From the NCBI GenBank assembly GCA_011389535.1, contig JAABUE010000001.1:1-59489 (forward strand): 59,489 nt of DNA, read 5' to 3'. The stretch is from Anaerolineales bacterium (GTDB lineage: Bacteria > Chloroflexota > Anaerolineae > Anaerolineales > Villigracilaceae). The notes beneath the pieces were generated by a model. That model worked only from the letters and a program-made list of their open reading frames with translations, was not told the origin of the DNA and made no database searches. Of this stretch, positions 20,759-59,489 are shown piece by piece (the first letter of the stretch is position 1; each line of letters opens with the position of its first letter). Made by a program: the position numbers and the translations under genes.

Positions 20759-20845
20759 GGAGAGGTCGCGTAGTCTGGTTTAGCGCGCACGCCTGGAGCG
20801 CGTGTAACCCGTAAGGGTTCGCGGGTTCGAATCCCGCCCTCTCCG
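20759..20845 (+). tRNA. tRNA-Ser (anticodon GGA), class II
   Basis: Hand-folded cloverleaf. Acceptor stem GGAGAGG/CCTCTCC, anticodon stem CACGC/GCGTG with loop CTGGAGC, long variable arm AACCC-GTA-AGGGTT, T arm GCGGG-TTCGAAT-CCCGC, discriminator G. CCA is not fully encoded. Confidence 0.9.
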
Positions 20846-46937: not shown

Positions 46938-48175
46938 AAGAAATTGCGATCGTCCAGGGTTTTGAAAATAATCTCGATTCACGCAACCGCAAGGGGATAA
47001 TCTGGCACGTGCTCTTTCAAGCATCGACCATTGTTGGAATCATTGCACTGATCGCCCTCATGCTCAACGTCATCGACAGCGCATTTGGATATGTTGCTTA
47101 TGAAGCCAGGATGGACCCCGATTCGCTCACAGTCGATGGCATACCTGTGGAAGATCAAAGCAAAGACCAGTTGGTAGCGCTCCTTCAATCCACTCTTTCG
47201 AGCGGGGCATACAACAAATTGGATAACGAAACACTCTTTGTTGACAGATCACGCGAGGAAGTATTTCAACTGGTCGTCGAAAGGATCATCAGACCCAAGA
47301 TAGTACAGGTATGGAAATTTTGGCCATCCCTGACCCGATCGGATGAGATTCGCGCAACGGTAACACGAGAATATCCAAAAGCAGAATTGGATTTCGTCTC
47401 CTGGCTGACTTATGATTTCGTTACCCGGCCCCAGACCAGTGAGCCCCTTACAGCTGGTGTTCGCACTGCTGTCCTCGGTTCGCTGTGGACCATCCTGTTT
47501 ACCATTTTGCTCGCCTTTCCGCTCGGTGTGGGGGCTGCAATCTATCTGGAAGAATACGCCTCGGAGAATTGGTTCAATCGCATTATTCAGACCAACATCA
47601 ATAATCTGGCGGGGGTGCCATCCATTGTATATGGCATTCTTGGCTTGGCTATTTTTGTCCGGGCCCTGGAACGGTTCACCAGCGGCAAGATGTTTGGGAT
47701 CGTAAATTTAACCTCGGAGAACGGACGAACCGTTCTTTCAGCAGGTCTAACCCTGGGCCTGCTCGTGCTTCCAATTATTATCATCAACGCCCAGGAGGCG
47801 ATCCGCGCGGTACCCCGTTCGCTTCGCAATGCCAGTTTTGGGGTTGGCGCGACCAAATGGCAAACGGTTTGGTCTCACATGCTTCCAAATGCTTTGCCTG
47901 GCATCCTGACCGGAACGATTCTCGCCATCTCCCGGGCTATCGGTGAAACTGCTCCACTGGTCGTAGTTGGCGCGTCCACCGCGATCAGCTTCGACCCGAG
48001 TTCACCTTTTTCAAAATTTACAACGCTTCCCATTCAAATCTATCAGTGGACCTCCCGTCCACAGGAGGAATTCCGGAGCCTTGCCGCGGCATCCATTCTT
48101 GTGCTGCTTGTATTGTTACTGAGCTTGAATGCATCCGCAGTTCTACTACGTAACCGCTTCAGCAGGAGATTCTAA
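46934..48175 (+). CDS. pstA: Phosphate ABC transporter permease PstA (second copy, long form)
   Basis: 413 aa with an ATGA overlap with pstC2. A large extracytoplasmic loop follows TM1. The EAA loop is [25 protein letters not shown]. Confidence 0.85.
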
Positions 48176-48177
48176 TC

Positions 48178-48972
48178 ATGGCCTTGAACAACAACTTCGA
48201 CCAAAAATACATCATCGAAACCCGCAACCTCGATATTTATTATGGCAGTTTCAAAGCCGTGGCAGGGGTCAACATGCGGGTTGAGAGAAACGCCATCACA
48301 GCCATCATCGGGCCCTCCGGCTGCGGCAAATCCACACTGTTGCGCGCGTTCAATCGTATGAACGAGTTGTATGCCGATACATCGATCGAAGGCGAAGTGA
48401 CCTTCAGCGGGCAGGATATTTACGCCAGGGATGTGGACCCTGTCGAGGTCCGTTACCGAATCGGAATGGTCTTTCAGAAGCCGAATCCCTTTCCGAAAAG
48501 CATTTATGAAAATATCGCCTGGACCGCCCGGATCCACGGTTATAAAGGCAACATGGATGAATTGGTCGAAAATTCTTTGCGGCAAGCTGCACTATGGGAT
48601 GAGGTTAAGGATAAATTGAAGCAATCGGGACTGTCACTTTCAGGCGGTCAGCAACAACGTCTCTGTATTGCACGCGCGCTTTCCATTAAACCTGAAGTGA
48701 TCTTGATGGATGAACCCGCTTCCGCCCTCGACCCGATCGCCACGCTCAAAATCGAAGAGTTGATGCAGGATCTCAAGCAAAACTACACCATCGTCATCGT
48801 GACGCATAACATGCAACAGGCCGCCCGCGCTTCGGACTATACGGCTATGATGATGTTAACGAACGGCGAATCTCGCTCCGGCACGGTGATCGAATTCGAT
48901 GAGACCAACATCATTTTTACCCGGCCAAAAGACAAACGCACAGAAGACTACGTTACCGGGCGGTTTGGCTAA
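48178..48972 (+). CDS. pstB: Phosphate ABC transporter ATP-binding protein PstB (canonical)
   Basis: 264 aa with [30 protein letters not shown] and VTHNMQQA. Confidence 0.9.
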
Positions 48973-49028
48973 TTCCTAGAGACAGAAAACCGTTATAATA
49001 CGCCAATGGGCTACAAAGTGAGGCATCT

Positions 49029-49718
49029 ATGATCCGTAAAACTTTTGAGCATGAACTTCAAGAAGTAAAGGATGATATCCTGGTGCTGGGCAGCATGGTC
49101 GAGGAAGCCATCCTGGCTTCCGTCGAGGCGCTGAAGAAACGCGATATTGAGGCAGCCAAGAACATCTTAATAGCCGACCGCGATATCAACAAGAAACGTT
49201 TTGAAATCGAAAACAAGCTGATGATCTTGATCGCTACCCAGCAGCCGATGGCGCACGACTTGCGATTGTTGGCTTCCTCGATGGAGATTATCTCGGAACT
49301 GGAACGCATGGGCGATTATGCCAAGGGCATTGCCAATATCAACATCCGAATGGGGGACGAGCCTCTGCTCAAACCATTGATCGATATCCCACGCATGGCG
49401 CAAAAGGACGTAGACATGCTTCATCGCGCCCTGACCGCCTTCGTCGAGGAAGATGTGGAAGCCGCCCAGGCAATTCCCATGGAAGACGATGAAGTGGATG
49501 CCCTTTACAACCAGGTCTATCGCGAGTTGATGACCTTTGTGATCAGCGATCCGAAAGCGATCGAACGCGCCAACTGGTTGTTGTGGGTGGCCCACAACCT
49601 GGAACGCGTTGCTGACCGCGTAACTAATATATGCGAACGGACGATCTTTATTGCCACCGGCGAATTGAAGGAAATCAAAAATAGCGATGATGAGTTCTGG
49701 AAACAACATAATTCGTAG
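49029..49718 (+). CDS. phoU: Phosphate signalling complex protein PhoU
   Basis: 229 aa with duplicated PhoU helical repeats (E..ERMGDYA and NLERVADRVTNI). Confidence 0.9.
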   Translation: MIRKTFEHELQEVKDDILVLGSMVEEAILASVEALKKRDIEAAKNILIADRDINKKRFEIENKLMILIATQQPMAHDLRLLASSMEIISELERMGDYAKGIANINIRMGDEPLLKPLIDIPRMAQKDVDMLHRALTAFVEEDVEAAQAIPMEDDEVDALYNQVYRELMTFVISDPKAIERANWLLWVAHNLERVADRVTNICERTIFIATGELKEIKNSDDEFWKQHNS

Positions 49719-50121
49719 TGTATTATTCCTGTGTACCGGCAATTCCTGCCGTTCCCAGATGGCCGAAGCGATCGTTAATACCCGCCTGTCAGACAACTGG
49801 CGGGCGTTCTCGGCCGGGACCGAGCCCGCAGGATACGTACACCCCAAAGCAATCCAGGTCCTCGACGAGATCGGCATCACCCAAAACGGAAAATCCAAGT
49901 CGACCGATCAATTCCGCGAAATTGACTTCGACCTGGTCGTCACCGTCTGCGACGACGCGGCTGAGAATTGCCCGGTCTGGCTGGGGAAGGGGAAACGCGC
50001 CCACCTGAGCTTTCCAGACCCGGCCAAGGCCGAGGGAACGGACGAGGAACAGCTGGCAGTTTTCCGGTCCGTGCGCGATGCGATTGCGCACAAAATCCCG
50101 GAACTGTTAGGACAAATGTAA
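49687..50121 (+). CDS. arsC: Arsenate reductase ArsC (LMW-PTPase family, thioredoxin-coupled type)
   Basis: 144 aa with P-loop CTGNSCRSQMAE and the downstream Cys pair VCDDAAENCP (pI258 C82/C89-like). Its start overlaps the phoU 3' end by about 30 nt. Confidence 0.85.
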   Translation: MMSSGNNIIRSVLFLCTGNSCRSQMAEAIVNTRLSDNWRAFSAGTEPAGYVHPKAIQVLDEIGITQNGKSKSTDQFREIDFDLVVTVCDDAAENCPVWLGKGKRAHLSFPDPAKAEGTDEEQLAVFRSVRDAIAHKIPELLGQM

Positions 50122-50139
50122 TTGAAACCAGAATCGCGG

Positions 50140-50168
50140 TTGACGAATCGATCATCCATCAGTACAAT
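50140..50168 (+). promoter_or_regulatory. Candidate sigma-70 promoter of the his operon
   Basis: TTGACG (50140-50145), 17-nt spacer, TACAAT (50163-50168). Confidence 0.55.
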
Positions 50169-50178
50169 GCAACCCATC

Positions 50179-50244
50179 ATGAACCTGACTTGCACCCTGC
50201 ATCATCATCTTTACCAACCCCTGCCTGACCGGAGCGCAGGTTAG
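50179..50244 (+). CDS. Candidate his leader peptide (21 aa, His-His-His)
   Basis: The ORF atg..tag encodes MNLTCTLHHHLYQPLPDRSAG, with CAT CAT CAT at 50200-50208. It starts about 4 nt from the predicted +1 (leaderless, no SD) and lies between the promoter and a strong terminator upstream of hisG. Confidence 0.4.
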   Translation: MNLTCTLHHHLYQPLPDRSAG

Positions 50245-50280
50245 TTTCGTTTATCTCGACTAGCCCCATCTGTAACCCCA

Positions 50281-50310
50281 AGCCCCCGGTCAGCCGGGGG
50301 CTTTGTTTTT
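50281..50310 (+). terminator. Intrinsic terminator (attenuator) upstream of hisG
   Basis: A 9-bp GC-rich stem (agcccccgg / ccgggggct) with a tcag loop, followed by ttgttttt. Confidence 0.75.
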
Positions 50311-50325
50311 GGCCCCCCTCCAGTT

Positions 50326-50363
50326 CCCCCCATTTTCCGCGAACTTCAGCGGAAAATGGGGGG
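50326..50363. repeat. Perfect 15-bp hairpin in the hisG 5' region (G/C-run element)
   Basis: Arms ccccccattttccgc / gcggaaaatgggggg around an 8-nt loop. It is followed by gggagaggggtcaggggtaaggg, which resembles the G-run element at 51425-51476. Confidence 0.8.
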
Positions 50364-50416
50364 AGAGCGAGACAAAAAGGGAGAGGGGTCAGGGGTAAGG
50401 GTAGTTTAGGATTATT

Positions 50417-51412
50417 ATGAACCAACGCCCGCTCCGCCTTTCCATCCCGTCCAAAGGCCGTCTCTCGGAAGACAGCCTGAACTTCCTGGCTGCCTGCGGG
50501 TTGGAAGTGTATAAGCCCAACCCGCGCCAGTACGAGGCCAGCATCCCGTCGGTGCCAGGGCTGACTATCCTCTTCCAGCGCCCGGCCGATATCGTCATCT
50601 CGGTCCGCAACGGCAGCGTGGACTTCGGGATCACCGGCCTTGACGTGCTGGCCGAATATCGCGGCCCGAACGGTAATATCCTCCCGGTCCACTCCGCGCT
50701 TGGGTTTGGGGCCTGTTCCCTGGACGTGATTGTCCCCGACACCTGGACCGACGTCAACCGGATGAGCGACCTTTCGCGGGTGCAGGCCAAGACCGGGCGT
50801 CCGTTGCGCGTGGCAACCAAGTTCCCCAACGCGGCTGCGCCCTTCTTCGCCCAAAATGGCCTCACCCAGGTAAACTTTATCGCCTCGGAAGGCACGCTCG
50901 AAATCGCGCCTACCATCGGCTACGCCGACCTGATCACCGACCTGGTCTCCACCGGCACCACCCTGCGTGATAACCACTTGAAACGCCTTGAAGACGGCCA
51001 GATCCTGTCGTCACAGGCCTGCCTGATCGCCAACCGTGCTGCGCTTATGGCTAACCCCGAAGCGCTCGCGATCGCCAAAACCCTGCTCGAGTATATTGTC
51101 GCCCACCTGCGCGCCAGGGAAGCCGTCTCGGTCTTTGTCAACATGCGCGGCGGCTCGCCCGAATCCATCGCCCGCAGCATGTTCACCCAAAAAGTCATCG
51201 GCGGCCTGCAAGGACCCACCTTTTCGCCCGTCATTACCCGCCAGGGAGAGCAGTGGTATGCAGCCCATCTTGTCGTCCGCAAGGACCAGCTTGCGCAGGC
51301 CATCGCCGAACTGCGCTCCATCGGCGGCAGCGGCGTGGTTGTCGCACCGGTGACCTATATTTTCGAAGAAGAACCAGAAGAATACCGCGCTATGTTGGAG
51401 GCGCTGAGGTAG
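50417..51412 (+). CDS. hisG: ATP phosphoribosyltransferase, long form with C-terminal regulatory domain
   Basis: 331 aa with [11 protein letters not shown] and [10 protein letters not shown] motifs and a C-terminal HisG_C-like domain. Confidence 0.9.
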
Positions 51413-51424
51413 CTACGAACCTAA

Positions 51425-51476
51425 CCCCCGTCCCTTCGGGACACCCCCTTCCCTGGTAGGGAAGGGGGCCGGGGGG
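51425..51476. repeat. G/C-run hairpin element between hisG and hisD
   Basis: Hairpin gtccc-ttc-gggac, then a 10-bp stem (cccccttccc / gggaaggggg) with loop tggta. Confidence 0.8.
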
Positions 51477-51497
51477 ATAGGTCAAAAGGAGAACTCT

Positions 51498-52847
51498 ATG
51501 CTCAAAATCTACGATGTCGAAACAGCCAAAAAAACCATCCTCAAACGCATCCCTCCCGACGAAACCGTTGTACCCCCTAGCATGCTCGAGCGCATCGCCG
51601 AAACCTTTGGCGAACGCATCAGCGCTGAGGAGGCCGTGCGGCGCATCCTACGGGACGTGCGAACACGCGGCGAAGCTGCCCTGCGAGACTGGTCTGCCAA
51701 GTTGGATGGCTTTCCCACAGATGCCCCGCTTCGTGTCCCGGAGGAGCAGCTTGCTTCCGCTTTGGAGACCTTACCTGCCCTCGACCGGGAAGCGCTCGAG
51801 CTGGCCGCTTATCGAATCCGCGAGTTCCATCGTCGCCAGCCATTGACCTCCTGGTTCACCAACGACTTAGGCGGTACACTTGGACAGATCATCCGCCCGC
51901 ACGCGCGCGTTGGGCTGTATGTCCCCGGCGGGACGGCTCCCCTGCCCTCGTCCGTTTTGATGTCCGCTATCCCGGCGCAGGTCGCAGGTGTTAAAGATAT
52001 TGTCGTCGTCACCCCGCCGCTCCGCCAGCCCGGCCAGTCATCGAACCTCGACTCTCTAGTCTCCCCCATCATCCTGGCTGCCTGTGCCCTTTGTGGTATC
52101 ACTGAGGTCTATGCGCTCGGCGGTGCGCAGGCCATCGCCGCCCTGGCATATGGAACGGACTCCGTCCCCGCCGTGGACAAGATATTCGGCCCCGGCAACC
52201 TCTTCGTTACACTTGCCAAACGCCAGGTCTTCGGCGCGGTCGGAATCGACGGCCTCGCCGGCCCCACCGAGACGGTCGTTATCGCAGATGAAACGGCCAG
52301 GCCCGCCTGGGTTGCCTCCGACCTGCTGGCCCAGGCTGAACACGATGTACTGGCCAGCGCCATCCTGTTGACGCCCTCGCCCGAACTGGCCGAAGCCGTA
52401 CAGGTCGAACTCGGTCACCAGATGGAAACCCTGCCGCGCGCGGACATACTGGCCCAGTCCCTTCCCGGCCAGAGTGGTATCGTGGTCACCAAAAATCTTT
52501 ACGAAGCTGTCACGCTCAGCAATGCTTATGCGCCCGAGCATCTCTGCCTGGCCGTGGCCGATCCATGGCCTTTGAGCGAAATGATCACCAACGCTGGCGG
52601 CATCTTCATAGGCGAACATTCCTTCGAAGTGCTGGGCGATTATGTCGCCGGGCCAAGCCACGTCATGCCCACTGGCGGCAGCGCGCGCTTCGCCTCCCCG
52701 CTCAACGTGTGGGATTTCGTCCACATCGTCAGCCTGATCGCGCTCAACCCCGCCACCACCGCCGAGATCGCCCCTCTGGCCGCTCGCATCGCCCGAGCCG
52801 AAAGTCTTGAAGCGCATGCTCGTTCGGCAGACTTCAGGGCAAAATAA
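51498..52847 (+). CDS. hisD: Histidinol dehydrogenase
   Basis: 449 aa with RBS aaggag and typical motifs ([31 protein letters not shown]). Confidence 0.95.
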
Positions 52848-52857
52848 CCACAAAGAG

Positions 52858-52925
52858 TATAGAGCTTACAGAGAAATAATAAAAAAAGTCTCTGTGCTCC
52901 CCGTGGACTCTGTGGTGAAAAGAGG
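52858..52925. repeat. Palindromic intergenic repeat (CCAC...GTGG type) between hisD and hisC
   Basis: Arms ccacaaagagtatagagcttacagag / ctctgtgctccccgtggactctgtgg around an A-rich loop. Confidence 0.8.
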
Positions 52926-52929
52926 TACC

Positions 52930-54003
52930 ATGCAACTTCCTGCTCATGTTCAAAACCTGACCGCCTACGTCCCCGGCGAATCCGTCGAGAGTCTTGCTGC
53001 CCGCCTTGGACGTTCCCCCGAATCCATCATCAAGCTGGATGCCAACGAGAACAACTATGGTACGCCTCCCGCCGTCTTTCAAGAGCTGGCTGCGCTTGCT
53101 GGAACCCATCGCTACCCCGATGCATCTCAGTCCGAGCTGCGCGCCGCGCTCTCCGCTTATACAGGCGTCCCGGCTGACTATCTGCTGGCAGGCAACGGTT
53201 CCGATGATCTTCTTTCGCTGATTGCACAGGTGCTGCTCCAGCCGGGTGACAGCATCCTGGTCTGCCCACCCACCTTCAGCATGTACGCCTTTTACGCGCG
53301 CTTGAAAAACTGCGATGTCATTAGCGTGCCGCGTCAAGCCGATTTTTCTCTGGACGTGGAGGAGATGATCTCCGCAGTTCAAGTCCACACTCCAAAGATT
53401 CTTTACATCGACACCCCGGGCAATCCAACCGGCTATAGCGTTTCCAGATTGGATATCGAAAGGCTGCTCTCTTTACCAACACTTCTTGTAATAGACGAGG
53501 CTTATCTCGAATTTACCGGATCGAATTCCTGGATAGCAGATGTACCTGCCAGTCAAAACCTGGTTGTGCTGCGCACTTTCAGCAAATGGGCCGGGCTGGC
53601 AGGGTTCCGGGTCGGATACGGCGCGTTTCCCAAATGGCTGGGTGATGCGCTCTGGCATGCAAAATCCCCTTACAACGTGACTGTACCAGCGATGACAGCC
53701 GCACTTGCTGCCCTGAGCGAAGAGGAGTTGCTCCGATCCAACATTGCCCACGTGATAGCGGATCGTGACCGCCTCGCCGATGAACTTCGCAAATTCAACG
53801 GCCTGAGCGTTTATCCATCCGACGCGAATTTCCTGTTGGTCAAAGTAGAGCCAGCCTTTGGCAGGCCGGCTGCAGAAGTTTGCGACCTTCTGAAGGAACA
53901 GGGCATCCTTATTCGCCTGTTCGAGAATATGGATTGCCTGCGCATCACGATCGGTATGACCGACGAAATCGAATCACTGCTGGGTGCGCTGAGTGACCTA
54001 TGA
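52930..54003 (+). CDS. hisC: Histidinol-phosphate aminotransferase
   Basis: The start is placed at [16 protein letters not shown] (52930); the ORF-track N-terminus would read through the repeat. The PLP lysine context is [11 protein letters not shown]. Confidence 0.9.
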
Positions 54004-54587
54004 GAACAGCTTCTATATCTCGCAAAACCAATGAGACCGACATCCGCATCGAACTCAATCTGGACGGTTCTGGCCAGTTTCAGGTCAATACCGGCATCGG
54101 CTTTCTCGACCATATGCTGACTCACCTCGCTGTCCACGGGCTCTTCGACCTGACTGTCAAAGCAAGCGGCGATCTACACATCGACGTCCATCACACCATC
54201 GAAGACACTGCCCTTGTGCTCGGCTCGGCCTTCGACCAGGCGCTCGGCGACCGTAAGGGTATCGTCCGCATGGCGAGCTGCTACGCTCCGATGGACGAGT
54301 CCCTGGCTTTTGTCGCCCTCGATCTTTCGGGCCGCCCGTATTCCGTAATCGAGGCGGAATGGGGCAGCGCGCCGGTCGGTCGAATTCCAACCAGCCTGTT
54401 CCCGCACTTCTTAGAGAGCTTCGCCATCACAGCGAGATGCAATTTGCACGCGCGTGTGCTCTATGGCCGCGACGACCATCACAAAGCCGAAGCCCTATTT
54501 AAGGCGTTGGCCCGGGCTCTTGATGCAGCAACAGCAATGGACAATCGCCGGGAGGGGAATATCCCATCCACAAAAGGAAGTTTATAA
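54000..54587 (+). CDS. hisB: Imidazoleglycerol-phosphate dehydratase
   Basis: 195 aa with the motifs [10 protein letters not shown] and HHTIED and a C-terminal HHK.EA..KA. It has an ATGA overlap with hisC. Confidence 0.95.
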
Positions 54588-54621
54588 AATACAGGGTTCC
54601 GCTATATTTAAGGAGAAACCA

Positions 54622-55092
54622 ATGTACGACACAATTCACGATTTGCTTGATGCGTTCAGAGCTACGCCTGAGATCCTGGCAGCTTTACTGGATAACGTCA
54701 CCCAGGAACAGGCGGAGTCCGCAAAAGGCGGCGACGAGGGCTGGTCGGTAGTGGAAGTAGTTTGCCACCTGCGTGACGCTGAGGAGATCGCCGTGCAACG
54801 GATGGAAACAATCCGCGACCAGGACGATCCCCTGATCTACGGATATGACCAGGAAGAACTGGCGCGCGAACGCAATTATGCTGCAGACGATTTGCGTTCT
54901 GCCCTGGCGGGTTTCATGAAATTTCGCGAACGCCACATCACCGGGCTATCTGCCCTCACCCCGCAGCAGTGGGAACGCCCCGGCCAGCACAGCGAACTCG
55001 GAACCGTGACGATCATGAATCATACCCAGCATATGGCTGCCCATGATGCAGTCCATTGCGCTCAGATTGCCCGACAATTGGCAAAAAATTAA
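54622..55092 (+). CDS. DinB-family protein
   Basis: The start is placed at MYDTIHD after aaggagaaac. It is a four-helix DinB-like protein with a His triad context (CHLRDAEE, HTQHMAAHDAVH). Confidence 0.65.
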   Translation: MYDTIHDLLDAFRATPEILAALLDNVTQEQAESAKGGDEGWSVVEVVCHLRDAEEIAVQRMETIRDQDDPLIYGYDQEELARERNYAADDLRSALAGFMKFRERHITGLSALTPQQWERPGQHSELGTVTIMNHTQHMAAHDAVHCAQIARQLAKN

Positions 55093-55099
55093 ATAGTTC

Positions 55100-55831
55100 A
55101 TGGAAGCAGGAAAATTATTCACCGTTTTCCCCGCCATCGACTTACGTTCCGGGAAAGTTGTCCGGCTGGCGCAGGGAAACCCGTCCCGGCAGACGGCATA
55201 CGGCGACGATCCGCGTGCCTGGGCCGAACGCTGGCAGGCCGAAGGAGCGGACTGGCTGCACGTCATCAACTTGAGCGGCGCATTTAGCGAAAATACGCAG
55301 GCCAACCTGGAAGCGCTCGAAAGTATTCTCAGCGTTGGCCTGAAAGTTGAGTTCGGCGGCGGCATCCGCGACAAGGATACCGTCCGCATCCCGCTCGAGA
55401 TAGGTGTGGAACGCGTCTTCCTCGGTACAGCGGCCATCCAGAACCCATCCCTGGTGGATTGGGCAGTTGACCGCTACGGACCAGCACGAATCGCGGGTGA
55501 CATCGGCGCGCGGGATGGCAAAGTGATGGTCAAGGGCTGGCAGGAATCCACACCCTTGACCGTGCTCGAAGTTGGGCAACGGCTGCGAAATCAAGGCGTC
55601 GAGTGGTGCGTGCTGACCGATGTCAAACGCGACGGTGTCGGCTCAGGCGTGGATGTCAGCAGCGCAGTAGAGCTTCAGGCAGAGACCGGGCTGCAGGTGG
55701 TCGCTTCGGGCGGCGTTTCTATGCTGGAAGATGTCCGGCATGCCCGGGAAGCGGGGCTGGCCGGCGTCATCATCGGACGGGTACTGTATGAGGGCAGACT
55801 GTCATTGCGAGCCGTCCTGAGCGGAGCGTAG
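55100..55831 (+). CDS. hisA: ProFAR isomerase HisA
   Basis: 243 aa with IDLRSGKVVRL, GGGIRD and VIIGRVLYEG motifs. The last ~10 codons and the stop lie inside the repeat that starts at 55801. Confidence 0.9.
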   Translation: MEAGKLFTVFPAIDLRSGKVVRLAQGNPSRQTAYGDDPRAWAERWQAEGADWLHVINLSGAFSENTQANLEALESILSVGLKVEFGGGIRDKDTVRIPLEIGVERVFLGTAAIQNPSLVDWAVDRYGPARIAGDIGARDGKVMVKGWQESTPLTVLEVGQRLRNQGVEWCVLTDVKRDGVGSGVDVSSAVELQAETGLQVVASGGVSMLEDVRHAREAGLAGVIIGRVLYEGRLSLRAVLSGA

Positions 55832-55936
55832 CGAAGTCGAAGGATGGCGAAGCAATCTCCAATTAAACGGTGAATCATTCCAGTGAAATTTACCCGTTTA
55901 ACGGAAGATTGCTTCGGGCTACGCCCTCGCAATGAC
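55801..55936. repeat. Composite palindromic element (GTCATTGCGAG ... CTCGCAATGAC)
   Basis: Terminal inverted 11-mers sit at 55801-55811 and 55926-55936. Nested inverted repeats include gcgaagcaatctcc / ggaagattgcttcg and aaacgg / ccgttt. An internal gtcctgagcgg...gaaggat segment resembles the 31842 element. Confidence 0.85.
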
Positions 55937-55953
55937 ATGAAACAGGAGTAAAC

Positions 55954-56565
55954 ATGATCACCATCGTTGATTACAAAGCCGGTAACCTGACCTCCGTCAA
56001 GCGCGCCCTCGACCATCTTGGCATCACCAGCCAGATCAGTGCTGACCCGGATATCGTCCGCAAGGCAGAGAAGGTTATCTTTCCCGGCGTGGGGGCGGCG
56101 GGAGCGGCGATGGATGTGCTCAAAGAATGGAATCTTGATTCAGCACTGAAAGCAGCCTTCAAAAACGGGACTCCCATCCTTGGCATCTGCCTCGGCTGCC
56201 AGATCATCCTGACCCATTCGGAAGAGGATGACACCCACTGCCTCGACCTTGTACCTGGCGCCTGTGTTCGTTTTCATTTGAATGATCCGACGCTTAAAGT
56301 CCCGCACATGGGCTGGAATGCTGTGACAGTCACGCAGCCACATCCCATCTTGAGCCATCTGCGCCCTGACGATGAGTTTTACTTTGTACATTCGTTTTAT
56401 CCGCAACTGGCTGACATGGCAAAAGTCTACGCGACAAGCGAATATGGTAGCACTTTCCCTGTAGCAATTGGCACGAATAATCTTTTTGCGGTCCAATTTC
56501 ATGCTGAAAAAAGTGGGCCATTGGGGCTGCGTTTGTTGGAAAATTTTGCAAGATGGAAACCTTAA
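55954..56565 (+). CDS. hisH: Imidazole glycerol phosphate synthase, glutamine amidotransferase subunit HisH
   Basis: 203 aa with the GICLGCQ catalytic Cys and a C-terminal FHAEKS (His/Glu). Confidence 0.95.
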   Translation: MITIVDYKAGNLTSVKRALDHLGITSQISADPDIVRKAEKVIFPGVGAAGAAMDVLKEWNLDSALKAAFKNGTPILGICLGCQIILTHSEEDDTHCLDLVPGACVRFHLNDPTLKVPHMGWNAVTVTQPHPILSHLRPDDEFYFVHSFYPQLADMAKVYATSEYGSTFPVAIGTNNLFAVQFHAEKSGPLGLRLLENFARWKP

Positions 56566-56635
56566 ATCTGTTGTTATTGCAGGAAGGGCGCAACCCAATA
56601 AAGCAAGTTCAAAACTACATTGGGGTAACCCTAAA

Positions 56636-56678
56636 CAGAAGATTGCCACGCCGCCAACGAACGGCGGCTCGCAATGAC
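56636..56678. repeat. Half copy of the CTCGCAATGAC element upstream of hisF
   Basis: cagaagattgcc...ggctcgcaatgac. The 18-mer gctcgcaatgacatgaaa is shared with the hisH upstream region (55925-55942). It contains the hairpin gccgcc-aacgaac-ggcggc. Confidence 0.8.
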
Positions 56679-56695
56679 ATGAAAGTGAGAGGATA

Positions 56696-57475
56696 ATGTT
56701 ATCCAAACGCATCATCTCTTGCCTGGACGTGCGCGACGGCAAACTGGCGAAATCCGTCAAATTCGTGGATACTAAAGACATCGGCGACCCGATCGGGCAG
56801 GCCAAAAAATATTATGAAGACGGCCTTGACGAGCTGGTCTTCTACGACATCACAGCTTCCAGTGACAGGCGCGACATCATGATCGACGTGGTCAGCCGCG
56901 TGGCGGAACAGGTCTTTATCCCCTTTTCGGTGGGCGGCGGCCTGCGGACGGTGGATGACTGTAGCCGCGTGCTACTGGCTGGAGCGGAGAAGGTCAACGT
57001 CAATTCGGCAGCGGTCAAAAGACCGGAATTGATCTCGGAAGCATCGAAGGCTTTCGGGGCGCAGGCAGTGGTGCTCTCGATGGACGTATTACACGTTGAC
57101 CCATCCGCTCAAATCCCCAGCGGATACGAGATCGTCATTAACGGCGGTCGCACACCGATGGGACTGGATGCCATCCGGTGGGCACAACGCGGCGAGGAAT
57201 TGGGCGCGGGCGAGCTGGTGGTCAACTCGATCGACGCCGACGGCACCAAGCAAGGCTACGAACTGATCCTGACGCGCTTGATTGCCGAAGCCGTGTCTAT
57301 CCCGGTGATCGCTTCGGGCGGCGGCGGGAAGCCGGAGCATCTCTACGCTGTGCTGACCGAGGGAAAAGCGGATGCCGCCCTGGTTGCGTCCATGTTGCAT
57401 TATGGGGAATATACGGTTGGGGAGATAAAAGCCTATCTAGTGGGAAGGGGATTAAAGATTCGCATGGTTAATTGA
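56696..57475 (+). CDS. hisF: Imidazole glycerol phosphate synthase cyclase subunit HisF
   Basis: 259 aa with the motifs [15 protein letters not shown] and IASGGGG. Confidence 0.95.
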
Positions 57476-57476
57476 A

Positions 57477-57540
57477 CCGCAAAGAGGCAAAGAACGCGAA
57501 GGAAAAAAGGCTCTCTTTGCGCCCTTCGCGAGCTTCGCGG
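57477..57540. repeat. Palindromic intergenic repeat (CCGC...GCGG variant) between hisF and hisI
   Basis: Arms ccgcaaagaggcaaagaacgcgaagg / ctctctttgcgcccttcgcgagcttcgcgg around the loop aaaaaagg. Confidence 0.8.
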
Positions 57541-57556
57541 TTCGTTTTGGAGTTCT

Positions 57557-57871
57557 ATGGAAAACCTGAAATTCGATTCGAATGGACTAATTGCCACCGT
57601 CGTTCAGGATGCCACTACCAAAGATGTCTTGATGGTGGCATGGATGAACGCTGAGTCGCTGCAAAAGACCATCGAGAACGGCGAAACCTGGTTCTGGAGC
57701 CGTTCGCGGCAGGGACTATGGCACAAGGGCGAGACATCCGGTAACACACAGAAGGTAGTCGAAATCCGCTATGACTGTGATGGCGATACACTGCTGGTGT
57801 TGGTGGAGCCTGCCGGGCCGGCTTGCCATACGGGGGCGGTATCATGTTTTTATCGAGCACTGTCGGTTTAA
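57557..57871 (+). CDS. hisI: Phosphoribosyl-AMP cyclohydrolase
   Basis: 104 aa with [23 protein letters not shown] and CDGD...CHTG motifs. Confidence 0.9.
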
Positions 57872-57878
57872 AGGCGTG

Positions 57879-57936
57879 TTTACCTGTCTCCGCGATTAGG
57901 CGTATACAAGTAGACAGGTAAATAGGTAGACAAGTA
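57879..57936. repeat. Inverted and direct repeat between hisI and hisE
   Basis: An 11-bp inverted repeat (tttacctgtct / agacaggtaaa) with a 22-nt loop, then direct repeats gtagacaggtaaatag and gtagacaagtag. Confidence 0.75.
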
Positions 57937-57953
57937 GCCTTAGGAGGCATTGA

Positions 57954-58229
57954 ATGAATTTGAACCAACTTTACAACATCATCCTCGACCGCAAAGAAAA
58001 CCCGACCGAAGTCTCGTATACTGCCTCCCTGTTTGCCAAAGGCCTGCCGCTCATTGCCCAGAAAGTCGGCGAAGAAGGCACCGAGGTGGTTGTGGCTGCG
58101 CTCTCGCAGGAGAACGAGCGTCTCGTCGAGGAGATCGCTGACCTGGCGTATCACGTCCTGGTGTTGATGGCCGCCAAAGGTGTCACGCCCGTGGAGGTGG
58201 CCGGGGAGCTGGAAAAACGTCATAAATAA
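57954..58229 (+). CDS. hisE: Phosphoribosyl-ATP pyrophosphatase
   Basis: 91 aa with RBS taggagg and the motifs SYTASLF, KVGEEGTEV and EIADLAYHVLVLM. Confidence 0.9.
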   Translation: MNLNQLYNIILDRKENPTEVSYTASLFAKGLPLIAQKVGEEGTEVVVAALSQENERLVEEIADLAYHVLVLMAAKGVTPVEVAGELEKRHK

Positions 58230-58291
58230 TGGAAGCAGCTTAGGGCGGGGTTTGAACGAGGGGAGAAGGACAAAGCCGGGAAATTCGTCCA

Positions 58292-58319
58292 TTGACGCGG
58301 GATAAAGAGCGGGTATAGT
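58292..58319 (+). promoter_or_regulatory. Candidate promoter upstream of the flavoprotein gene
   Basis: TTGACG (58292-58297), 16-nt spacer, TATAGT (58314-58319). Confidence 0.4.
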
Positions 58320-58349
58320 ATCCCCATCCCAATTCGCAGGAAAAGAAGC

Positions 58350-59489
58350 ATGCCCTCCCCTTATGACATCCTCTTCGAACCGGTTCAAATCGGACCGGTC
58401 ACTGCTCCCAATCGTTTTTACCAGGTGCCCCACTGCAACGGATTAGGCCATCGCATGCCGCGCGGGTTGGCCGCTATGCGCGGGATCAAGGCCGAGGGCG
58501 GTTGGGGCGTGGTCTGCACCGAGGAAGTGGAGATTCACCCCAGCAGCGACCTGTCACCGTATTTCGAGGGCCGCCTGTGGAGCGATGACGACATCCCGGC
58601 CCTGGCGCTGATGGCAGAAGCGGTGCACGCCCACGGCGCGCTGGCGGGCATCGAACTGGCCTACAACGGGCTGGACGCTAACAACCTGTACACGCGCGTC
58701 CCGCCATTATCAGTCACCTCAATGGGCACACTGGGCGGGACGGGTTACGATCCCGTGCAAACCCGCCGCATGGATAGAGAAGACATCCGGAACCTGCGCC
58801 GCTGGCACCGCGCCGCCGCGCTGCGCGCCAAACGGGCGGGCTTCGACCTGATATACGTCTACGCCGGGCACGCGCTGACCGCTGCCGCCCAGTTCCTGCT
58901 GCGCCGCTACAACGACCGGACCGATGAGTACGGCGGCTCGCTCGAAAACCGCGCGCGCCTGTTCCGCGAACTACTGGAAGATACCAAAGAAGCCGTGGGC
59001 GACAAATGTGGCGTAGTCGCACGTTTTGCTGTGGAAGAACTGCTCGGTGATGAAGGCATCACGCACCAGGGCGAAGGCCACGAGGTCATCGCCATGCTGG
59101 CCGAAATCCCCGATCTGTGGGATGTAAACCTCAGCGGCTGGAGCAACGACTCGGCCACTTCGCGTTTCGAGAAGGAAGGCTACCAGGAGAAGTACACGGC
59201 CTTCGTCAAGTCGCTCACCAGCAAACCGGTGGTCGGCGTGGGGCGCTACACCTCGCCCGATTCGATGGTCTCTGCCGTGCGGCGCGGTGTGCTCGATATG
59301 ATCGGCGCGGCGCGCCCGTCCATCGCCGACCCGTTCCTGCCGAACAAGATCAAGGAAGACCGCCTCGAAGACATCCGCGAGTGCATCGGCTGCAATATCT
59401 GCGTCACCGGAGATACGCGCTTTGTGCCCATCCGCTGCACCCAGAACCCCACGATGGGCGAAGAATGGCGGCGCGGCTGGCACCCCGAG
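58350..59489 (+). CDS. NADH:flavin oxidoreductase, Old Yellow Enzyme family with a 4Fe-4S motif (2,4-dienoyl-CoA reductase / trimethylamine dehydrogenase-like); 3' end outside the window
   Basis: Hand translation from the ATG at 58350 gives MPSPYDILFEPVQIGPVTAPNRFYQVPHCNG...GIELAYNG...IYVYAGHA...ECIGCNICV. It stays open to the window edge, so it is absent from the ORF track. The antisense ORFs listed there are spurious. Confidence 0.8.
   Translation, partial: MPSPYDILFEPVQIGPVTAPNRFYQVPHCNGLGHRMPRGLAAMRGIKAEGGWGVVCTEEVEIHPSSDLSPYFEGRLWSDDDIPALALMAEAVHAHGALAGIELAYNGLDANNLYTRVPPLSVTSMGTLGGTGYDPVQTRRMDREDIRNLRRWHRAAALRAKRAGFDLIYVYAGHALTAAAQFLLRRYNDRTDEYGGSLENRARLFRELLEDTKEAVGDKCGVVARFAVEELLGDEGITHQGEGHEVIAMLAEIPDLWDVNLSGWSNDSATSRFEKEGYQEKYTAFVKSLTSKPVVGVGRYTSPDSMVSAVRRGVLDMIGAARPSIADPFLPNKIKEDRLEDIRECIGCNICVTGDTRFVPIRCTQNPTMGEEWRRGWHPE

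Follow-up and report, generated by a model that had tools for sequence, protein, structure and literature searches.

Several described systems resemble the element reported here. The enterobacterial histidine leader hisL (Rfam His_leader RF00514) combines a short open reading frame (ORF) with consecutive His codons upstream of hisG and mutually exclusive helices that end in an intrinsic terminator, and a stalled ribosome frees its antiterminator; in E. coli, hisL has seven His codons. T-box leaders with a His specifier (Rfam RF00230) likewise act on his genes through competition between terminator and antiterminator and respond to the charging of tRNA-His; T-boxes occur in Chloroflexota. Candidate His leaders have been predicted by comparative genomics in Firmicutes (Bacillus cereus group, Peptostreptococcaceae and Erysipelotrichales), with three to five consecutive His codons, antiterminator and terminator hairpins, and no match to RF00514 (PMC9413887). 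The ilvBNC attenuator of Corynebacterium glutamicum relies on a leaderless ORF and three hairpins, the first of which blocks initiation and acts as an anti-antiterminator, while the second structure is the antiterminator and the third the terminator (PMC11857589). Leaderless short polycysteine ORFs of mycobacteria sense the supply of the amino acid by a run of cognate codons and ribosome pausing and so control downstream operon genes, acting on translation (10.1101/834739). Here we analyze a leader upstream of hisG in a stretch of 59,489 nucleotides from an Anaerolineales bacterium of the phylum Chloroflexota (contig JAABUE010000001.1), the whole of which is called the window below. Its sequence and that of its relatives point to what is very probably a ribosome-mediated (leader-peptide) transcription attenuator sensing charged tRNA-His.

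The leader, about 125 nt long, and the operon behind it consist of the following features, all on the forward (+) strand:
50140..50145 (+), -35 hexamer TTGACG, found at -39..-34 in an ungapped, ATG-anchored stack of 65 related loci
50163..50168 (+), -10 hexamer TACAAT after a 17-nt spacer, found as TAnAAT at -16..-11 in the same stack
50176 (+), predicted transcription start, the A of a conserved CCCA, which would leave a 3-nt 5' untranslated region (UTR)
50179..50244 (+), leader ORF of 21 codons, MNLTCTLHHHLYQPLPDRSAG, with ATG at 50179, TAG at 50242-50244 and no Shine-Dalgarno (SD) sequence
50179..50193 (+), segment A, the 5' strand of the putative anti-antiterminator helix, which includes the start codon and pairs with 50236-50250 in the minimum free energy fold
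50200..50208 (+), putative regulatory His codons CAT CAT CAT
50218..50232 (+), segment B, the antiterminator strand CCCCUGCCUGACCGG in the 3' part of the leader ORF, pairing with 50286-50300
50236..50250 (+), segment C, which contains the leader stop codon and has either A or D as its partner (folding, covariation)
50258..50265 (+), segment D, which forms a small hairpin with 50239-50246 nested in the antiterminated fold (folding, covariation)
50280..50310 (+), intrinsic terminator with a 10-bp stem of which 8 pairs are G-C, a UCAG loop and a U-rich tail
50417..58229 (+), putatively regulated operon hisG, hisD, hisC, hisB, a DinB-family gene, hisA, hisH, hisF, hisI and hisE (Pfam)

The promoter, the 21-codon ORF, the three CAT codons, the hairpin and an 8-nt complement had all been reported by the initial annotation, and a rereading of 49800-50700 found each of them in place. 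In a consensus scan of 47000-59489, the TTGACG-17-TACAAT promoter matches 10 of 12 consensus positions and is joint best, and the 50280-50310 hairpin is the strongest terminator-like site. Its stem is formed by 50280/81-89 with 50294-302/03, one pair longer than the 9 bp first described, around a TCAG loop and before the tail TGTTTTTGG. A scan of the whole window found a single unit of promoter, short ORF and terminator, namely this leader, and a DNA profile built from aligned leaders (nhmmer) matches the window once, at 50137-50312. The 8 nt CTGACCGG at 50225-50232 are the exact reverse complement of CCGGTCAG at 50286-50293; this complementarity stood, and its length grew from 8 to 15 nt, which largely answers the weakness that the initial annotation saw in an 8-bp antiterminator. 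The full antiterminator pairs CCCCUGCCUGACCGG (50218-50232) with CCGGUCAGCCGGGGG (50286-50300) in 14 pairs and one C-C mismatch, and takes up the end of the terminator 5' arm, the loop and, beyond the target first proposed, most of the 3' arm. Antiterminator and terminator share strands and are mutually exclusive. Two further helices were found when 50175-50315 and 50176-50303 were folded. Helix A:C (50179-50193 with 50236-50250) joins the regions of the start and stop codons and includes the AUG at 50179-50181; the codons for M-K-L-T provide its strand AUGAAACUGACC, whose partner GGUUAGUUUCGU lies around the stop codon. Helix C:D (50239-50246 with 50258-50265) is the alternative to A:C.

This locus shares with hisL the consecutive-His ORF upstream of hisG, the exclusive helices ending in an intrinsic terminator and, as predicted here, an antiterminator freed by a stalled ribosome. 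It differs from hisL in its phylum, in lacking an SD sequence, in the position of its ORF 0-4 nt from the predicted 5' end, and in having three His codons (3-6 in relatives). Rfam returned no match at the leader, neither His_leader RF00514 nor T-box, at the gathering threshold across the window or at E up to 10 over 49900-50600, which bears out the absence of a T-box remarked on earlier. An origin independent of hisL is likely. The layout of C. glutamicum ilvBNC is matched by helix A:C, the antiterminator and the terminator, including a first helix that contains the start codon; this likeness is one of architecture, as the ilvBNC attenuator senses branched-chain amino acids in Actinobacteria, and most of the present loci have 3 nt between the predicted 5' end and the start codon instead of beginning directly with that codon. 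The output also sets the window leader apart from the mycobacterial polycysteine ORFs, since here it is a canonical intrinsic terminator. The Firmicutes His leaders belong to another phylum and are likened to this one by description. Compared with a T-box, the window leader has no T-box match or specifier-loop architecture, is far shorter and would use an ORF as its sensor. A search of the available literature found no earlier description for Chloroflexota or Anaerolineae; a prior prediction in a 2010 survey (Lopatovskaya et al., Mol Biol 44:128) is possible.

According to the proposed mechanism, transcription would start about 3 nt before the leader ATG, and a ribosome would load on the leaderless or nearly leaderless 5' end. 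When His-tRNA is scarce, it would stall at the CAT codons (50200-50208), with a footprint that keeps segment A open and leaves segment B (50218-50232) free; B would pair with 50286-50300, helix C:D would nest inside, the terminator would be blocked and RNA polymerase would enter hisG. When His-tRNA is plentiful, the ribosome would reach the stop codon at 50242-50244 and cover B and C, the hairpin at 50280-50303 would form and transcription would end at the U tract. With no ribosome at all, helix A:C (50179-50193 with 50236-50250) would close over the start codon and enclose B, and the terminator would again form.

This scheme was examined by folding with ribosome-footprint masks, both in the window and in 66 related loci. 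With His codon 1 or 2 of the window leader in the A site, the antiterminator has a probability of 0.99 and the terminator 0.01. Once the footprint is moved to the stop codon or into the tail of the ORF, the terminator reaches 0.99. Footprint folding therefore reproduces the geometry claimed in the initial annotation, in which a stalled ribosome frees 50225-50232 and a ribosome at the stop codon covers it. Stalling at the His codons could instead act mainly via translation, mRNA stability or Rho-dependent termination, and the window does hold a strong hairpin between the terminator and the hisG ribosome-binding site. We judge this very unlikely, given that a canonical GC-rich hairpin with a U tract is kept in about 60 loci, that the SD-like AGGA of hisG (50409-50412) lies outside the leader helices, and that relatives do not conserve the spacer from terminator to hisG, which in several of them measures under 30 nt.

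Attenuation of transcription by a leader peptide also accounts for what is conserved among relatives. A HisG protein scan, keeping one genome per species, yielded 80 hisG loci with 60-91% HisG identity, all from metagenome-assembled genomes of Anaerolineae/Chloroflexota, and 76 of them offered full-length upstream regions. Of these 76 regions, each taken as the 450 nt before hisG, 66 held an ORF that starts with ATG, spans 8-60 codons and includes His-His-His. As controls, the reverse complement gave 0/76, 450-nt windows elsewhere in these loci gave 2/1786 and shuffles gave 5/1520. No other amino-acid triplet was enriched in the hisG upstream regions under this test, and His codons were enriched in one frame only. 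Judged from these sequences, the leader arrangement is far beyond chance. The longest His run in 67 related leaders is three in 22, four in 30, five in 5 and six in 4, and leader length ranges from 17 to 33 residues. The leader DNA profile matches 76 of 81 sequences, with a single match in each barring two weak reverse-strand matches to the terminator. A terminator occupies the same position in about 60 related loci, with clade-specific stems. About 75 species-level Anaerolineae genomes keep one set of elements together upstream of hisG: a His run, a terminator with its antiterminator, and a promoter whose short distance is fixed. The exceptions include a locus whose hisG directly follows another gene (L020), a truncated contig (L029) and a locus without a leader (L079). 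One of the loci, L006, is recorded as Anaerolinea thermophila, so the element may be present in a cultured strain of this species.

Some relatives deviate in other ways. Two loci, L059 (32-190) and L032, keep the promoter, the antiterminator motif and the terminator, and their His runs have decayed to L-H-Q-P-H and V-H-H-R, respectively; they may be attenuators that are losing histidine sensing. In L072 (2384-2549) the His leader is present and a short extra gene, which by eye resembles a four-helix-bundle protein, stands between leader and hisG; this inserted gene would come under histidine control. The His codons of the leaders are mostly CAT (202 CAT, 84 CAC), whereas the hisG genes of the same loci have 168 CAT and 280 CAC, a bias that may reflect stalling sensitivity or constraints of RNA structure.

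The 5' end of the leader is also conserved. The ungapped stack of 65 leaders shows TTGACG at -39..-34, TAnAAT at -16..-11 and CCCA at -6..-3, followed by ATG AAA. Counted from the -10 box to the ATG, 44 of the 65 leaders have a gap of 10 nt, ten of 7 nt, seven of 8-9 nt and two of 11 nt, so that 63/65 fall within 7-11 nt. Where the gap is 7 nt, the ATG has its A at the position that the conserved A(-3) holds in the other loci; because these two coincide, 50176 is the likely start and the 5' UTR would be 0-4 nt long. An SD-like tetramer is present in 1/65 leaders vs 38/67 hisG genes. Genome surveys put the TANNNT signal of leaderless genes some 12 bp before the start codon and found such genes in 4 of 12 Chloroflexi genomes (PMC3160421); the distance in the leaders studied here is the same as in those surveyed genes or 3 nt longer. 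Dependence on leaderless translation, listed as a weakness by the initial annotation, is largely offset by the conservation of this layout, with the start itself being a prediction.

These features bear on whether a ribosome operates the switch. The alternative helices alone are silent on what selects between them, and a factor other than the ribosome, such as uncharged tRNA-His in a T-box-like manner, a small molecule or an RNA-binding protein, might do so. The chance of this is slighter still than that of control through translation, stability or Rho: besides the lack of any T-box or other Rfam match, a leader of this length is too short for a T-box, and the sole feature other than the helices that extends to all clades is the in-frame His run in an ATG ORF whose start is 0-4 nt away from the predicted 5' terminus, with neither a second enriched frame nor another enriched amino-acid run.

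The reading of the leader as an attenuator further predicts that its RNA, more than its peptide, should be under constraint. The antiterminator motif is read in three frames, by 30, 4 and 2 loci. In the window's clade the residues after the His run, P-L-P-D-R-x-A-G, derive from this motif; the other frames give P-C-L-T-G-A-Q-V-R-F-A or F-P-P-A-stop. As the same nucleotides are read in three frames, the motif is conserved as RNA, not as peptide. Covariation was assessed on a 67-sequence MAFFT alignment by counting pairs of the named structures, with shuffled and slid-partner controls:
Terminator: 84.4% of cells paired, covariation 0.228, shuffled 0.198, best slid 0.172
Antiterminator: 76.8% of cells paired, covariation 0.290, shuffled 0.162, best slid 0.142
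Helix A:C: 66.9% of cells paired, covariation 0.215, shuffled 0.179 (0/500 reach the observed value), best slid 0.084
Helix C:D: 70.7% of cells paired, covariation 0.195, shuffled 0.143, best slid 0.122

Both-side changes occur in 9 of the 10 terminator pairs. For the antiterminator, cells with changes on both sides number 74, vs 24.9 in shuffles, and none of 500 shuffles reached the observed value. The pairs are clade-specific in sequence, for example CCCCCGACCGGGCAGG with CUCCGGUCGGAGGG and CACCCGAUUCGGGAGG with CCCCCCGGAUCAACCGGGGGG, and terminators fold at -25.2 kcal/mol with their own antiterminator segment vs -21.1 kcal/mol with segments from loci that have differing terminators (p = 5e-6). 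The alignment of hisG upstream regions suggested by the initial annotation thus revealed both the conserved His-codon run and the compensatory changes that it had called for. A reading in which the product of the short ORF is a functional, His-rich micropeptide, for instance one that binds metal, and the RNA structures are incidental deserves little credence. The ORF is conserved, and its N-terminal M-K-L-T and His run do look like peptide conservation; yet the residues beyond the His run come from one nucleotide motif in three frames, leader length varies between 17 and 33 residues, and the M-K-L-T codons supply one side of a helix whose other side is the stop-codon region and which shows compensatory changes in other clades. 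Scarcely credible, finally, is the reading of 50280-50310 as the terminator of the upstream pst-phoU-phosphatase operon, with an ordinary hisG promoter and a coincidental His-rich ORF: the upstream gene ends at 50121 with no other terminator-like site before 50280, and phoU lies upstream of hisG in several relatives too, but a terminator downstream of the conserved promoter would stop that promoter's own transcripts, the His run is found in 66/76 loci vs about 0.1-0.3% in controls, the antiterminator covaries with the terminator, and the leader stays with hisG in differing surroundings, such as those of L072 with its inserted gene.

The coding content of the antiterminator strand is an observation of its own. 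This C-rich strand (50218-50232) encodes a proline-rich sequence, which is P-L-P-D in the window's clade, T-P-T-P-P-D-S-G-G in a second and F-P-P-A-stop in a third. PPD-type motifs slow ribosomes. As pure speculation, such slowing could prolong the ribosome's stay on the antiterminator strand under ample histidine.

Every sequence-level prediction of leader-peptide attenuation that could be tested held, in support of the initial annotation, and several points weigh on the other side. The support for this organism and its relatives is computational throughout. The transcription start is a predicted one, and a 3-nt 5' UTR would not be strictly leaderless. The window leader has just three His codons, a weakness pointed out from the outset and largely offset by the runs of 3-6 in relatives, although the window itself keeps three. 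Folding of 50175-50315, which had been proposed as a check, placed the two conformers close in energy: without a ribosome, helix A:C plus terminator reaches -40.8 kcal/mol vs -39.5 kcal/mol for antiterminator plus C:D (slightly shorter transcript). With conformers nearly iso-energetic in these models, the default state would depend on folding kinetics. From the MAFFT alignment of 67 sequences RNAalifold recovered 5 pairs only; it is uninformative here because the clades are out of register in the stems and alternative folds compete. At equilibrium, the full-transcript switch was reproduced in only 32 of the 66 loci, and whichever mask is applied, the GC-rich terminator prevails in the more distant clades. 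Because the terminator wins at equilibrium, the argument in those clades rests on co-transcriptional folding, for which a transcript ended before the terminator 3' arm served as proxy. Across the 66 loci, the mean paired probability of the terminator 5' arm in this proxy is 0.74 with a stalled ribosome, 0.44 with one at the stop codon and 0.56 without a ribosome (stalled vs stop, Wilcoxon p = 2.5e-12).

On balance, the evidence tilts modestly towards a broader proposition, namely that Anaerolineae own an independently evolved, undescribed family of histidine attenuators whose sensing ORF lies on leaderless or 3-nt-leader mRNA and whose 5'-terminal start codon is part of the anti-antiterminator strand. 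If this is true, the operon would read the timely loading of a 70S ribosome and then its stalling on His codons; transcription-translation coupling and leaderless initiation would be functional and under selection in Chloroflexota, and the element would be a reporter for both. Gene regulation in Chloroflexota, and above all in the mostly uncultured Anaerolineae, is almost unstudied, and what is offered here is a comparatively supported candidate cis-regulatory RNA family, with about 75 species-level genomes, four covarying helices and no Rfam match, that could enter RNA family databases and serve in the annotation of his operons in metagenome-assembled genomes. The textbook mechanism is unchanged and direct precedents exist. 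Leader-peptide attenuation of his operons would be extended beyond Proteobacteria and Firmicutes, where it was already described or predicted, and leaderless leader ORFs beyond Actinobacteria. The mechanism would also imply ribosomes closely behind RNA polymerase in Chloroflexota, and the fixed promoter-ATG distance amounts to a testable prediction of the transcription start.

The hisGDCB-AHFIE operon named by the initial annotation was recovered, with two additions: hisI and hisE are separate ORFs, and a DinB-superfamily gene (DinB_2 / MDMPI_N; 54454-55092, +) lies between hisB and hisA. The listed start of this DinB ORF overlaps the end of hisB, and its true start is probably further downstream. 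Pfam assigns hisG to the long form; the genes upstream of the leader are a phosphate-transport/phoU cluster and a low-molecular-weight phosphatase.

The spacer at 50311-50401 forms a very stable structure between the terminator and the hisG ribosome-binding site, with a 113-nt spacer fold at -54.8 kcal/mol (z = -7.6). It contains a perfect 15-bp hairpin, CCCCCCATTTTCCGC/GCGGAAAATGGGGGG (50326-50365), nested in an outer stem of C-rich and G-rich strands; the G runs that follow, GGGAGAGGGGTCAGGGGTAAGGG (50379-50401), are compatible with a G-quadruplex motif. In close relatives this spacer site is occupied by CCCCTCTCCC-N3-5-GGGAGAGGGG, and copies of the palindrome CCCCTCTCCC-N-GGGAGAGGGG also stand well away from hisG in L014 (538-560) and L041 (6058-6080). 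The 50326-50365 hairpin and the G-rich tract were considered as a second regulatory element and rejected, as the spacer is not conserved and the palindrome is also found far from hisG; this palindrome probably belongs to a dispersed, REP-like repeat and has no part in the switch. Unrelated repeats, tandem or palindromic, occur in the spacers of L014, L017, L015, L026 and L012: a ~24-nt unit, GCGGGGCGAGAGAACCCCGCCCAA, is present about five times in L014, L017 has TTACC-rich repeats, and L015 and L026 carry repeats of the ATTCGATA type. Repeats seem to insert preferentially in this stretch between terminator and hisG.

Elsewhere in the window, a second near-consensus promoter-like site, TTGACG-16 nt-TATAGT (10/12), lies just downstream of hisE at 58292-58321 (+). 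The sole Rfam match at the gathering threshold in the window is an 87-nt tRNA at 20759-20845 (+), whose length suggests a long variable arm.

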